From the IMG/VR virus record IMGVR_UViG_3300029498_000126: a DNA stretch of 8,691 nt; one strand, 5' to 3'. The position numbers and the translations under genes were made by a program. Every line of letters starts with the position of its first letter. The first letter of the stretch is position 1. Below are positions 3,649 through 7,915 of this stretch, in pieces. The stretch comes from a virus. Taxonomy: Duplodnaviria; Heunggongvirae; Uroviricota; Caudoviricetes. The notes under the pieces were generated by a model, which saw only the letters and a list, made by a program, of their open reading frames with translations, was not told where the DNA came from and searched no databases.

Positions 3649-3990
3649 ATGATTACTAAAAATTTCCGACTGAATGCGCTGGCGAATAAGTATGCGTCGG
3701 CACTGTATAACCACATTACCTCCACCAGCGGCGGGGACTATTTCATGGTTGATGCGGACGGCCTCGCCGTCCGTGTGGAAATCGTCAATGGAGTAAAAGG
3801 CGTTCGCAGCCTGATCGATAGCTACACACTGGCAGCCATGAAAGTGTTCTACCCGCAGTGGGAAACCGTGGGGATCGAGCTTCTTGATCGTTGCGTCACT
3901 AAGGACGGATTGACTGACGTCGGGCGCGAGATATGGCAAAGCATGATTAATGATATGGGCGCGACCGTGGCAGGAGGCAACCATGCGTAA
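3649..3990 (+). CDS. hypothetical protein (113 aa), translationally coupled to the primase
   Basis: RBS GAGGATGG upstream of ATG 3649. Stop TAA 3988-3990 overlaps the primase start (ATGCGTAA). Confidence 0.5.
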   Translation: MITKNFRLNALANKYASALYNHITSTSGGDYFMVDADGLAVRVEIVNGVKGVRSLIDSYTLAAMKVFYPQWETVGIELLDRCVTKDGLTDVGREIWQSMINDMGATVAGGNHA

Positions 3991-6742
3991 TATCGACCTT
4001 ATCCGCGAAGTGACCAGCGCCGCAGCAGGGCGCTGGCCTTATGTGCTGGCTGGATTGTCTATCGACGTGCCTGATTCATCGCGCCGCCATTCTCCATGCC
4101 CTGCATGTGGTGGAAAAGACCGTTTCAGATTCGACGACAACGGGCGCGGTAGCTTTATCTGCAACCAGTGTGGCGCTGGTGACGGGCTGGATTTAATCAA
4201 GCGGGTTAACAACTGCGACACTACGGAGGCGGCACAGCTTGCCGCTGACGTGCTGGGTATTGATTACCGGGCAGCGCAAACCGACCCGGTGGCAGCGAGC
4301 CATAGAAGAGAGCAACTGGAAGCTGACCGCCAGCAGCGTGAGCAGGAGCGCCAGAAACAGGCAGCAGAGGACGCAGAGCAGCGAAGGGCTACGTTTGCCC
4401 GTCTGTATGCCGGAATGCGCCAGAGTGTCACACAGGGCGAATCTGATTACCTGCAATCAAAAGGGCTGACCGGGTTTAATTACCCGGTTATGTCTGATGG
4501 TTCGCTACTCCTGCCGCTGGTGGATGAATCCGGCGCAGTAGTGGCGGCGCAGACCATCACGCCGCAGGGAGATAAACGACTCCTGACAGGTTCAGCAAAG
4601 CGCGGGGCATATCACGCCGTAAACGCGCCAGAATCGCCGCAGAGCGTTTTAATTGCCGAGGGGCTGGCGACGGCCCTTTCAGTTCACCTGATGCGCCCGG
4701 ACGCGCTGGCAGTGGCAGCAATTGACGCGGGCAACCTGCTACCCGTTGCCGAAGTGATGCGCCGGAAGTATCCACAGGCACAAATAATCATCGCCGCAGA
4801 CAACGACCACCACCAAAACGGAGAAGCCAATACAGGCAGGGAGGCCGCAGAGAAAGCCGCCTTGTCCGTGGCTGGATGGGTGGCACTGCCGCCGACAGAC
4901 TACAAAGCCGACTGGAACGACCACCACCAGCAAAACGGGCTGGAAGTCGCTACGGCTGCGTTTAACGACTCGATGTACCAGATTCAAGGGGAAGCCGTTA
5001 AACCACGATTGCAGGCCATTGAGGGCGGTAAAACTGACCATCCAGAGAAAGACCCACTAAAACCCCACATTGAGAGCCGAAAAGATGTCGTTTTCTGGGT
5101 AACGCCGAAGGTGGACAAGGAAAGCGGGGAGATCATCAACGCTGAAAGCTGGTTATGTTCACCGTTGGAGGTTATCGGCACGGGACGCGACGACAAAGAT
5201 CAGTATCTTATTATCTCATGGCTGGCATTTGGTGCAGGCATACCGACAACAGCGGCTATCCCGCTGGCTGATATTGGCGAGCGTGAAGGCTGGCGCACCC
5301 TGAAAGCTGGTGGCGTCAACGTCACAACGAAAAACAGCCTACGGGCGATTCTTGCCGACTGGTTACAGCGAAGCGGCTCGCGTGAATTGTGGCGCGTTGC
5401 TCATGCTACAGGCTGGCAGTGTGGGGCATACATCATGCCGGACGGGGAAATCATCGGCACACCTCAGCGGCCTGTTTTGTTCAGCGGGCGCAGTTCAGCC
5501 GCTGCCGGGTATACCGTAGCAGGAACGCCTGAAAGCTGGCTTAACAGTGTTGCGCGGCTGGCATACGGCAACTACGCGATGATGACAGGCATCGCCGCAG
5601 CACTGGCAGCGCCATTAATCGGGGTGGCAGATCGTGACGGATTCGGGATTCATTTTTATGAGCAATCGAGCGCCGGGAAAACAACCACGCAGAACGTGGC
5701 GAGCAGTCTTTACGGCAACCCTGATGCCTTGCGCCTGACGTGGTATGGGACGGCGCTGGGGCTGATAAACGAGGCCGCCGCCCACAATGACGGGCTGATG
5801 CCGCTGGATGAAGTCGGACAGGGCGCAGACCCGATAAGCGTTTCTCAGTCTGCCTATGCCCTGTTTAACGGCGTGGGGAAATTGCAGGGAGCAAAGGAAG
5901 GAGGCAACCGGGATCTGAAACGCTGGCGCACCGTGGCAATCAGCACCGGGGAAATGGATTTAGAAACGTTCATCGCCACCGCAGGACGCAAGACAAAAGC
6001 GGGGCAACTGGTGCGACTGCTGAATATCCCGCTGAGTAAGGCGGTGCGCTTTCATGAGCACCAGACAGGGAAAGATCACGCCGACGCGCTGAAAGACGCT
6101 TACCAGCACCATCATGGCGCTGCCGGGCGGGAGTGGATTAGATGGCTTTCAGACCACCAGCAGCAGGCGATTGATGCCGTTCGTGAGTGTGAAGCCCGAT
6201 GGCGAAGTCTAATCCCTGCTGACTATGGGGAACAGGTTCACCGTGTAGGGGCGAGGTTCGCCATTCTGGAGGCCGCTTTACTGCTGGGTGGCGTGGTTAC
6301 TGGCTGGGATGCTCAAACGTGCCGGGATGCGATACAGCACACCTATAACGCATGGCTGAAAGAGTTCGGCACGGGGAACAAAGAGCACCAGCAGATCATC
6401 GAGCAGACGGAGGCGTTTTTAAATGCCTATGGGCTGAGTAGATTCGCGCCGCTGGGTTATGACCCGCGCGATTTACCCATCCGTGATTTAGCCGGGTACA
6501 GGAAGAAGGGGAACCACGACGGCGACCCGATAATTTTCTACACCTTCCCGGCAACATTTGAGCAGGAGATCGCACGGGGTTTTAATGTCAGGCAGTTTGC
6601 CGAAGTTCTCAAGAATGCAGGAATGCTAACACCACCAACGAGCGGGCGAGGTTATCAGGGGCGGGTAAGGGAAGGAGGGCGGCAAATTCGCGTTTATGTG
6701 CTCAACTTCATGGATGAGGAAAGCAGCCAGCCAGAAGAATAA
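3983..6742 (+). CDS. P4-alpha-like DNA primase/helicase (zinc finger + Toprim primase + P-loop helicase/ori-binding C-terminus)
   Basis: 919 aa from ATG 3983 with AGGAGG 7 nt upstream (the track ORF begins 11 codons earlier at 3950). Cys motifs CPACGG...FICNQCG at about 4097-4175. Charged Q/E/R-rich linker. Toprim-like acidic motifs (LIAEGLATALS; IIIAADNDHHQNGEANTGREAAEKAA). Walker A SSAGKTT (~5671-5690) and Walker B LMPLDEVG (~5800-5820). Architecture matches satellite-phage P4 alpha-type primase-helicases. Confidence 0.9.
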   Translation: MRNIDLIREVTSAAAGRWPYVLAGLSIDVPDSSRRHSPCPACGGKDRFRFDDNGRGSFICNQCGAGDGLDLIKRVNNCDTTEAAQLAADVLGIDYRAAQTDPVAASHRREQLEADRQQREQERQKQAAEDAEQRRATFARLYAGMRQSVTQGESDYLQSKGLTGFNYPVMSDGSLLLPLVDESGAVVAAQTITPQGDKRLLTGSAKRGAYHAVNAPESPQSVLIAEGLATALSVHLMRPDALAVAAIDAGNLLPVAEVMRRKYPQAQIIIAADNDHHQNGEANTGREAAEKAALSVAGWVALPPTDYKADWNDHHQQNGLEVATAAFNDSMYQIQGEAVKPRLQAIEGGKTDHPEKDPLKPHIESRKDVVFWVTPKVDKESGEIINAESWLCSPLEVIGTGRDDKDQYLIISWLAFGAGIPTTAAIPLADIGEREGWRTLKAGGVNVTTKNSLRAILADWLQRSGSRELWRVAHATGWQCGAYIMPDGEIIGTPQRPVLFSGRSSAAAGYTVAGTPESWLNSVARLAYGNYAMMTGIAAALAAPLIGVADRDGFGIHFYEQSSAGKTTTQNVASSLYGNPDALRLTWYGTALGLINEAAAHNDGLMPLDEVGQGADPISVSQSAYALFNGVGKLQGAKEGGNRDLKRWRTVAISTGEMDLETFIATAGRKTKAGQLVRLLNIPLSKAVRFHEHQTGKDHADALKDAYQHHHGAAGREWIRWLSDHQQQAIDAVRECEARWRSLIPADYGEQVHRVGARFAILEAALLLGGVVTGWDAQTCRDAIQHTYNAWLKEFGTGNKEHQQIIEQTEAFLNAYGLSRFAPLGYDPRDLPIRDLAGYRKKGNHDGDPIIFYTFPATFEQEIARGFNVRQFAEVLKNAGMLTPPTSGRGYQGRVREGGRQIRVYVLNFMDEESSQPEE

Positions 6743-6766
6743 TCTTTTTTCACATACGTAGTTTTA

Positions 6767-7027
6767 GTGTTGTCTCAGTTGTCTTTGTTGTCTCATTTTG
6801 TAAGTTACATTGATTTATAAGGATTTTATTTTAATTTCTGAGACAACATTGAGACAACATTTAGCCATTTTGAGACAACAGGGCGAACGTGTGTTTTTAG
6901 TCCGGCAGGCAGTGAGACAACATTTATGCCGGGTGAGACAACACGAAATTGCAAATGTTGTCTCAGCAAAACCCAGACGTGGCGCGGCCTGTAGAGCCGT
7001 GAGACAACAAAGACAACAGAGACAACA
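6767..7027. repeat. iteron array (TGAGACAACA / TGTTGTCTCA), probable origin of replication
   Basis: Core GAGACAAC on + at 6840-6847, 6851-6858, 6872-6879, 6914-6921, 6935-6942, 7001-7008, 7019-7026 (plus AGACAAC 7011-7017). Reverse complement GTTGTCTC at 6769-6776, 6787-6794, 6957-6964 (plus GTTGTCTT 6778-6785). Spacings of 11, 21, 42, 21 and 9 bp suggest helical phasing. Lies just 3' of the primase/helicase gene. Confidence 0.75.
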
Positions 7028-7057
7028 CTATTTTTGTTTATATACAAAAAAATCTGG
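7028..7057. other. AT-rich tract adjacent to the iterons, candidate DNA unwinding element
   Basis: ctatttttgtttatatacaaaaaaatctgg is strongly AT-rich and abuts the last iteron. Confidence 0.4.
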
Positions 7058-7130
7058 CGAAGGTGTCCCACAATAAGACGGTGCCGGGCAATCTTCATTA
7101 GCAAAACTAATAATTCGAGGTATTCGCAAA

Positions 7131-7592
7131 ATGACAGCACAGATATCAGCCTACGGGCGGCTGGTGGCAGATCCCCAGACCAGAACGACAAACAGCGGCG
7201 GCAGCATGACAATGGGGCGTTTAGCGGTGGCACTGCCTTGCCATGCAGCAGAGGGCGGAGAGGTTACTTTCTGGCTGGGCGTGGTGGCATTCGGCAAACA
7301 GGCCGACGCACTGGCAGGACACGTTAAAGGCGATTTAGTCAGTGTTGCCGGAGCGATGCAGGTCAATCAGTGGGCGGGCAAGGATGGCGGTACACAGCAG
7401 GGGTATCAGGTAGTAGCCGACAGCGTGATCAGCGCCAGAACGGTACGCCCCGGCGGGAAGCGGGCCGAGTCAGTCAAAGCAAGTGGAGCCAGCAGGGGCC
7501 ACAAAACGCAATCCGCGCCGGGATGGGAGCTATATAACACCCCTGATGATTTTGACCAGCGCCCACCATTCGACGATGAAACGCCATTCTGA
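7131..7592 (+). CDS. ssb: single-stranded DNA-binding protein (SSB family, OB fold) with acidic C-terminal tail
   Basis: 153 aa. N-terminal region follows the SSB pattern seen in E. coli SSB (G.L..DP..R...GG...; W..VV.FGK.A....KG..V...G......W). C-terminus ...DDFDQRPPFDDETPF closely resembles the E. coli SSB tail ...DFDDDIPF. GAGG about 11 nt upstream of the ATG. Confidence 0.8.
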   Translation: MTAQISAYGRLVADPQTRTTNSGGSMTMGRLAVALPCHAAEGGEVTFWLGVVAFGKQADALAGHVKGDLVSVAGAMQVNQWAGKDGGTQQGYQVVADSVISARTVRPGGKRAESVKASGASRGHKTQSAPGWELYNTPDDFDQRPPFDDETPF

Positions 7593-7603
7593 GGGGGGTG
7601 AAC

Positions 7604-7915
7604 ATGGTAAACGACAGCAAAGCTGAGGATCTGGAAGCAAAAGGGCTGTACCGACGCGCCGCCGCGCGATGGATGGAAGTCATGCTGTTATGCACCGAGG
7701 ACGATGATCGGGAATGGATAAAGCGCCGCCGTGAAACGTGTCTGGAGAACGTGAAGCGCCCGCCCGTGAAGGTTGAGGACTTTGGCGACCTGCATAAAGC
7801 TGTCACCGAAACTCAGCACCGCATGGGGATAGCGCAACCGAACGGTAACGCCTTCCGGTTAAATGGCGGCAAGAGGCAACGGCAGACCACCAGCGGGGGC
7901 GATGGTTCGCAGTAA
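7604..7915 (+). CDS. small regulator, PerC-like (103 aa)
   Basis: ATG 7604 with GAGGGGGG RBS directly upstream (the track ORF starts at a GTG at 7598). N-terminus MVNDSKAEDLEAKGLYRRAAARWMEVM...REWIKRRRETCL resembles what I recall of PerC-family activators, which are common in enterobacterial prophages and satellites. From memory, not a search. Confidence 0.45.
   Translation: MVNDSKAEDLEAKGLYRRAAARWMEVMLLCTEDDDREWIKRRRETCLENVKRPPVKVEDFGDLHKAVTETQHRMGIAQPNGNAFRLNGGKRQRQTTSGGDGSQ

Follow-up and report, generated by a model that had tools for sequence, protein, structure and literature searches.

We analysed an 8,691-nt stretch of DNA from a virus of the Caudoviricetes (IMG/VR record IMGVR_UViG_3300029498_000126; hereafter the window) and find that an array of short repeats at 6768–7027, together with its flanking AT-rich tracts (~6743–7056), is very probably the vegetative replication origin of an integrative island of the Gram-negative phage-inducible chromosomal island (PICI) type. 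The array lies between the gene for a 930-amino-acid (aa) primase–helicase, Pri-Rep (3950–6742, + strand), and ssb, which encodes a single-strand DNA-binding protein (7131–7592, + strand). It begins 26 nt past the Pri-Rep stop codon (6742) and ends ~100 nt before ssb, which is followed by perC. Our reading rests on the uniqueness and enrichment of the array, its placement between Pri-Rep and ssb, a conserved repeat map, covariation of the repeats with the C-terminal domain (CTD) of Pri-Rep, the presence of the least stable duplex in the window, precedents from PICIs and Staphylococcus aureus pathogenicity islands (SaPIs), the island context and circular records of related islands. In RefSeq, the array region is an unannotated intergenic gap.

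Twelve copies of TGAGACAACA lie within 6768–7027, nine of them perfect and three variant (AAAGACAACT, AAAGACAACA and AGAGACAACA); a more degenerate copy, counted as the twelfth, is the AAAGACAACT on the minus strand at 6777–6786. These iterons are 9–10 bp long and occur in mixed orientation. Minus-strand 10-mers start at 6768, 6777, 6786 and 6956, and plus-strand 10-mers at 6839, 6850, 6871, 6913, 6934, 7000, 7009 and 7018, which gives start-to-start steps of 9, 9, 53, 11, 21, 42, 21, 22, 44, 9 and 9 along the array. A first-pass annotation, made from the sequence alone, had described plus copies spaced 11, 21, 42 and 21 bp apart and 9-bp spacing in the triplet at the 3′ edge, and our recount reproduces all of its coordinates and spacings. 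Its suggestion that the copies are helically phased and lie on one DNA face holds for the internal copies, whose steps (11, 21, 42, 21 and 22) are near-multiples of a turn, but not for the 9-bp triplets. Counting the motif on both strands revealed enrichment far beyond chance: with up to one mismatch, GAGACAACA has 11 matches in the window, every one within 6768–7027, whereas shuffled sequence yields 1.75 ± 1.35 matches and none of 200 shuffles reaches 11. Outside the array, the window has a single AGACAAC 7-mer, at 4798, and no second cluster of TGAGACAACA was found elsewhere in the window or across the whole 30-kb locus (L001, Escherichia coli D5) that contains the ~13-kb island.

The left end of the array is a minus-strand triplet with 9-bp steps (6768–6795). 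It is separated from three direct iterons on the plus strand (6839–6880; spacing 11 and 21) by a 43-bp spacer with 16% GC (6796–6838), a candidate DNA-unwinding element from which the iterons on either side diverge. Positions 6798–6837 form the least stable 40-bp duplex of the whole window, with a nearest-neighbour ΔG of −40.4 kcal/mol against a mean of −56.8 ± 4.1 (4 s.d.). Two more direct iterons on the plus strand (6913–6943, 42 and 21 from the preceding copies) and a single inverted iteron on the minus strand (6956–6965) lead to a GC-rich spacer (6966–6999, 68% GC) and then to a plus-strand right triplet (7000–7027), which again has 9-bp steps and is inverted with respect to the left one. 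The two triplets thus face each other, in keeping with the two opposed binding blocks that had been suggested, and both lie inside a 54-nt imperfect inverted repeat (6742–6795 and 7000–7053). A second AT-rich tract (7028–7056, 17% GC) follows, and 7015–7054, just past the right triplet, is the third least stable 40-mer in the window. We propose that the left triplet, the AT tract at 6796–6838 and the first three direct copies constitute the core origin.

The map of the array is conserved among relatives of the island. Scanning one genome per species yielded 63 loci with relatives of the primase–helicase (51–97% identity), from genomes that do not include E. coli ED1a, the carrier of the fourth Pri-Rep variant. 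Where the downstream sequence is intact, almost every locus shows repeats no more than 450 nt past the stop codon. In ~50 homologous loci across the Enterobacterales, the copies share offsets from that codon, at approximately +27, +36 and +45 (inverted), +99, +110, +131, +173 and +194 (direct), +215 (inverted) and +260, +269 and +278 (direct), in Kosakonia, Enterobacter, Klebsiella, Lonsdalea, Erwinia, Tatumella, Pectobacterium, Rouxiella, Serratia and others. The slots of the left triplet are filled in homologous loci, and those of the single inverted iteron and the right triplet are conserved. These offsets hold even where the repeat word is wholly different: 12 origins from different genera align in register over ~300 nt, with the repeat slots changing together. 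The 43-bp AT spacer is alignable across genera, and the TTATATA core of the second AT-rich tract is conserved in the alignment, distant loci included. Copies that varied in position among homologous elements would have spoken against functional iterons; their positions are conserved.

The repeat words vary by clade and include TGAGACAACA, TGAACCAACA (the majority), TGAACCGAC, AAACCGACC, TACCCGACC, TAACCCGT, TAACCCAC and CTTATCCCA, as well as TACCCGAC. The word TGAGACAACA occurs in the window, Shimwellia, Kosakonia, two Enterobacter and one other Enterobacterales genome. Many loci have a short form with the first six copies and the AT tract only (for example, L009, L012, L013, L020, L026 and L031). 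The commonest E. coli variant (E. coli MS1737; L071:3346–3480) is also of the short form and lies in a prophage beside DNA-ejection/injection genes. The replicon is therefore common to satellites and phages, and the right half of the window's array is either dispensable or an accessory. Among closer relatives, two non-iteron blocks are kept as well, AAAACCCAG...TGGCGCGGCCTG in the GC-rich spacer and CTGGCTGG at 6897–6912, just 5′ of the fourth direct copy; in distant loci, AT-rich sequence replaces both blocks (6966–6999 and 6897–6912). Two primase genes were recovered under labels from other phyla, one 84% identical to the window protein (L007, CACSKA010000004.1, ‘Chryseobacterium sp. 18061’) and one 96% identical (L064, a 394-bp ‘Paenibacillus oleatilyticus’ contig with a coverage of 0.96). 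These Bacteroidota- and Firmicutes-labelled matches most likely reflect contamination or mislabelling.

The repeat word covaries with the CTD of Pri-Rep, and in particular with a hairpin that we predict to be the wing of a winged helix. The wing motif YQGRV-RE[GD]GRQ accompanies TGAGACAACA in 6 of 6 loci and [YF]QRKSPR[IV]xGRQ accompanies TGAACCAACA in 38 of 38; TGAACCGAC, TACCCGAC, AAACCGAC, TAACCCGT, TAACCCAC and CTTATCCCA are each paired with a wing motif of their own. Seven of 1010 alignment columns have disjoint residue sets between GAGACAAC and GAACCAAC loci, and five of these are residues 904–908 (G/R, R/K, V/S, an inserted P and E/I-V). When identity to the window protein is taken by segment, only the final ~130 residues of the primase go with the word. 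For example, L015 is 64–82% identical over the primase and helicase, 86% identical in the last 130 residues and carries TGAGACAACA; it is a mosaic of a divergent body with a CTD and iterons of the same type. L044 is 80% identical to the window protein in the last 60 residues, yet carries TGAACCAACA. As a control for linkage, Pri-Rep residues 893–921 separate the classes (at least 93% identity within classes versus at most 77% across them), and the two upstream open reading frames (ORFs), the primase N terminus, the helicase, SSB and PerC do not. In Pantoea sp. 1.19 (L017), the wing reads QRKTPRIDGRQ where others have QRKSPRIDGRQ, and the iterons are TGAACCGAC rather than TGAACCAAC; one residue of the wing and one base of the recognized word may have changed together here.

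These comparisons bear on the alternative that the array is a partition (centromere-like) or packaging site, or that it binds some unrelated protein encoded by the island or a helper phage; binding of an unrelated regulator had itself been named in the first-pass annotation. Two blocks of short phased repeats are also seen in plasmid centromeres, and several uncharacterised DNA-binding proteins (AlpA, Ash-like, AntA and PerC) are encoded nearby. Against this, the repeat type covaries with the Pri-Rep CTD and with no neighbouring protein tested, the module keeps its register when it is found in other genomic surroundings, and we found no par or terminase genes in the island. We consider this the most improbable of the alternatives to an origin.

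By sequence and predicted fold, Pri-Rep is a chimaera of a P4-alpha-like primase with a helicase and winged helix like those of SaPI Rep and Cch. It comprises a Zn-ribbon, Toprim_3 and a DUF927 helicase (Pfam PF08273, PF13362 and PF06048; PHROG 1139, ‘DNA primase’). Residues 18–342 are 35% identical to P4 alpha (E = 7e-45) and the remainder has no significant similarity to it, and sequence matches to the helicase region include SaPIbov1 Rep (8tch) and SCCmec Cch (5dgk). We modelled the CTD (aa 780–930; 6287–6739, + strand) with AlphaFold2 from a 37-sequence alignment, which was deepened with the fragments that were all a C-terminal protein search returned. The model has two long helices, a small sheet, two short helices and a β-hairpin at model residues 125–141 (aa 904–920; nt 6659–6709), and the residues that discriminate between repeat words sit on the first strand of this predicted wing. 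Among PDB entries, Foldseek ranks the SaPIbov1 replication initiator first (8tch; probability 1.0, E = 8e-3) and TcpK, an oriT-bound winged-helix protein, next. The model also matches the winged helix of Cch. Over the CTD, sequence identity to SaPI Rep is only 13–17%. The covariation of word and CTD across ~50 loci and a predicted winged helix like that of the SaPI Rep CTD support the first-pass suggestion that the primase C terminus is the binder, and Pri-Rep would read the iterons through the wing of this domain.

The homology of the primase domain to P4 alpha also invites the alternative that the array is a replication enhancer similar to P4 crr, bound by the primase–helicase, with initiation at a separate ori. 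In P4, the cluster directly 3′ of alpha is crr, and ori is ~4.5 kb away. However, we found no second iteron cluster in the island or in circular records of related islands, and the AT-rich unwinding candidate lies inside the array. Moreover, the helicase and DNA-binding domains of Pri-Rep are unrelated to those of P4 alpha and resemble SaPI Rep and Cch, and the SaPI origin is an array 3′ of rep. An enhancer of this kind is very improbable.

A scan of 6600–7250 for promoters and terminators found no site on the + strand and one weak site of each kind on the minus strand, which matches the expectation from shuffled sequence; it gives no support for an ssb promoter or a primase terminator in the gap. 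This bears on the possibility that the array is mainly a transcriptional operator, at which Pri-Rep or another island regulator would control read-through or initiation of ssb–perC, much as the Rep proteins of iteron plasmids autoregulate through inverted repeats. The right triplet and the TTATATA tract are 75–130 nt upstream of the ssb start, which in some relatives is only ~60 nt past the right triplet, and a regulatory role could coexist with origin function. Nevertheless, besides the lack of a σ70-like promoter or terminator-like site on the + strand of this region, neither SSB nor PerC varies with the iteron type, short-form arrays occur in a prophage with no ssb downstream, and 12 sites around the least stable duplex exceed the need of an operator. 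A mainly regulatory array is improbable. All three alternatives could be secondary roles, and they fit the data worse than an origin does.

Other features of the gap were also considered. No DnaA box with fewer than two mismatches was found in the array, and the two-mismatch matches at its edges (6746 and 7038) are no better than those elsewhere in the window; the lack of a close DnaA box fits a self-loading initiator. An Rfam search of the region returned no family, and only chance matches to microRNAs and long non-coding RNAs below threshold, caused by the inverted repeats. Two overlapping ORFs (6810–7076, + strand, 88 aa; 6826–7233, − strand, 135 aa) were rejected as coding because they contain 1-nt indels in relatives that are ~90% identical and because the repeat words are replaced wholesale in other loci.

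We propose the following course of events for the origin. After induction, the Pri-Rep of the island would recognize the 9–10-bp iterons through the β-hairpin wing of its C-terminal winged helix, and helicase rings would assemble on the two opposed iteron sets around the 43-bp AT tract (6796–6838). This tract would then melt, the DUF927 helicase would load itself and the fused Zn-ribbon/Toprim domain would lay primers. The SSB of the island, encoded just downstream, would coat the unwound strands.

Several points weigh against the origin reading, or against the part that Pri-Rep plays in it. Binding by Pri-Rep, melting of the AT tract and firing of the origin are all steps that we infer. The CTD model has a mean pLDDT of 82, but three of the five models are poor (scores 48–55), and the Foldseek E value of 8e-3 is weak. 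The missing DnaA box removes one classical hallmark of an origin. The right half of the array (6913–7027 and the second AT tract), to which we assign no role, extends the core in some relatives only. The GAGACAAC class is probably a single lineage, in which case the QGRV pairing is one event plus the L015 mosaic, and the argument rests on approximately seven classes and one clear mosaic rather than on ~50 independent observations. Finally, L052 on the one hand and L016, L025 and L035 on the other have near-identical wing strands and different words (TAACCCAC versus TAACCCGT), and the wing strand is therefore not the sole determinant; other residues contribute.

The island context is that of a Gram-negative PICI. 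Of 5426 complete E. coli genomes, 33 contain the array sequence (99% identity or more) and 730 have relatives of the primase 3′ end. In E. coli D5, the island (~13 kb) lies between yicC and dinD, which is the attachment site of EcCIRM13514 (PMC6092414, Table S1). Its gene order is integrase, a hypothetical gene, an AlpA-family helix–turn–helix protein (PF05930), AntA, DUF4222, an Ash/Icd-like protein, three small ORFs, Pri-Rep, ssb, perC and a few accessory genes, which matches the backbone described for Gram-negative PICIs (PMC6092414). Nearly all of these genes are on one strand, with integrase, AlpA and Pri-Rep all on +, so that the island has the features by which Gram-negative PICIs are recognized: int, alpA and pri in one direction, a length of ~10–20 kb and a dedicated attachment site that prophages do not use. 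No capsid, terS, rpp or ppi genes were recognized in this locus, in which no search for cos sites was made, and sid, delta and psu are absent from the island.

Closed circular records that match the origin region range from 17.8 to 21.8 kb and were deposited as ‘non-mobilizable plasmid’. They are NZ_CP146545.1 from Raoultella (L069; 17.8 kb) and CP031370.2 (L070) and CP031371.2 from Klebsiella pneumoniae (19–22 kb), the last of which was compared by DNA match alone. The annotation of L069 and L070 is that expected of complete islands of the family, with one or both listing an integrase-like protein, AlpA, DUF4222, an antirepressor, PerC and pRiA4b-ORF3. The repeats are GAGACAAC in the Raoultella record and GAACCAAC in CP031370.2. 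The circular records look like excised or episomal satellites, and they document episomal occurrence rather than prove autonomous replication.

Other observations concern the genes and borders of the island. The longest Pri-Rep ORF starts at the ATG at 3950 (MIWARPWQEATM...), and RefSeq homologues start at the ATG at 3983 (MRNIDL..., 919 aa); an ORF at 3649–3990 overlaps the longer version by 41 nt. Downstream, ssb (Pfam PF00436) is a member of the replication module, and the perC-family gene (7598–7915, + strand; Pfam PF06069) is an accessory gene typical of E. coli PICIs, some of which are known to encode PerC variants (PMC6092414). Upstream of the replication module are genes for an AntA-type antirepressor (448–1281) and an Ash-family/Icd-like protein (1395–2378). 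Within the latter region, a 260-nt stretch (1731–1994) is ~91% identical to Stx-converting and other lambdoid phages, a sign that regulatory genes may have been exchanged with phages that could act as helpers. The right junction in E. coli D5 (L001:18759–20760) has dinD twice in tandem, as 825-nt genes whose protein accessions differ; upon integration between yicC and dinD, the island seems to bring along or restore a copy of dinD. In RM13514, the flanking dinD is frameshifted.

The plan of such origins is already published for SaPIs and Gram-negative PICIs, so the array would not surprise a specialist, and the general picture of how these origins work is unchanged by it. We found no literature text on the word TGAGACAACA, the 12-site long form or the covariation of wing and iteron; Fig. 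2a of PMC6092414 is available as an image only, and an origin of the TOPRIM/DUF927 type might be drawn there. When full texts were searched for the repeat words, all matches were to unrelated primers and sequences. What the analysis adds is a base-precise annotation of the origin for a widespread replicon module of the Enterobacterales. The covariation of iteron and wing also provides a testable prediction of how SaPI-Rep-like initiators read DNA, and helps to predict cross-activation or exclusion of replication among satellites and prophages.

A broader reading, the case for which we regard as evenly balanced, is that these loci form a natural series of specificity swaps for a self-loading winged-helix initiator, that cassettes of CTD and ori define incompatibility or orthogonality groups, and that the right half of the array is a second loading or regulatory site. 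The words TGAGACAACA and TGAACCAACA differ by two bases, changed in all 12 sites, and a patch of 4–5 residues on one strand of the wing (G904R, R905K, V906S, an inserted P and E908I) would suffice to retarget the protein from the first to the second. Similarly, the single S-to-T change may accompany the switch from TGAACCAAC to TGAACCGAC. If this reading is true, several satellites or prophages with this replicon could share one cell without cross-firing, and the right half would be a second loading or regulatory site of a kind undescribed for PICI origins.

The origin can be compared with several known systems. Iteron plasmids (pSC101, F with RepE, R6K with π and RK2 with TrfA) have direct repeats of 17–22 bp and Rep proteins without helicase or primase, and depend on DnaA and on DnaB–DnaC. 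They share with the array an origin-specific winged-helix initiator (predicted here) and multiple phased repeats beside an AT-rich unwinding region. Here, by contrast, the repeats are of 9–10 bp and in mixed orientation, and the initiator has its own helicase and primase. We therefore rejected a classical iteron-plasmid origin, on account of the repeat length and orientation, the absence of a DnaA box with fewer than two mismatches and the primase and helicase of the initiator.

The resemblance to P4 is closer. In both, primase, helicase and origin binding (the last predicted here) reside in one polypeptide with homologous N-terminal Zn-ribbon/Toprim parts, and short iterons in both orientations lie directly 3′ of the gene (crr in P4). 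Unlike in P4, the helicase here is DUF927, and neither it nor the C-terminal DNA-binding part has similarity to alpha. The annotated type-1 octamer repeats of P4 are GGTGAACA/TGTTCACC, compared with TGAGACAACA here, which bears out the first-pass suggestion that the specificity may differ from that of the P4 ori iterons. In addition, P4 has separate ori and crr, placed by record annotation and sequence, whereas a single cluster is present here. The P4 frame in which the element had been viewed thus stands for the primase domain, but the element as a whole is PICI-like and has no bipartite ori and crr. A P4-type replicon was rejected because only residues 18–342 align with alpha and because neither TGTTCACC iterons nor the ori/crr pair is present. 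The entry 1KA8, which we take to be the structure of P4 alpha, is not among the PDB sequence-search or fold-search matches of Pri-Rep.

Gram-negative PICIs have origins directly 3′ of pri-rep, with two iteron sets around an AT-rich region, and the piece of EcCICFT073 that carries pri-rep and ori drives plasmid replication (PMC6092414). PICI origins are recognized by at least two iterons on each side of an AT-rich region, in opposite directions (PMC6092414, PMC9371898); here, three minus copies (6768–6795) and three plus copies (6839–6880) flank the 43-bp AT tract, and the array directly follows the pri-rep gene, as it does in ~50 loci. The unidirectional order int–alpA–...–pri–ori–ssb–perC is shared as well, and EcCIRM13514 occupies the same yicC–dinD attachment site. 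EcCICFT073, EcCIRM13514 and EcCI042 all have the order pri/rep, gap, (hypothetical), ssb, perC; the initiator is a ‘DNA primase family’ protein in the first two (584 aa and 607 aa, respectively) and a RepA-family helicase in EcCI042, whereas the initiator here is a 930-aa protein with Zn-ribbon, Toprim_3 and DUF927. The gap 3′ of the EcCICFT073 primase contains TGTCTACC/GGTAGACA repeats in both orientations, the word there being TGTCTACC and that here TGAGACAACA. A further difference is that no capsid genes are recognized in the island here. PICI primases of the DUF927 type, and SSB co-located with the origin, have been noted previously (PMC10111431).

SaPI Reps are self-loading helicases with a C-terminal winged helix that binds iterons just 3′ of rep, to either side of an AT-rich centre; the iterons are penta- or hexanucleotides, 6–12 in number (PMC9371898). 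The system here differs from those of SaPIbov1, SaPI1 and SaPI5 in the low sequence identity of the CTD, in its 9–10-bp iterons, in its P4-alpha-type primase and in its Gram-negative host. Nonetheless, it shares with them a helicase–initiator gene with iterons directly 3′ of it, an AT-rich centre and opposed iterons. The helicase and CTD are alike in sequence and (as modelled) in fold, and in some SaPI members a primase is likewise fused to Rep.

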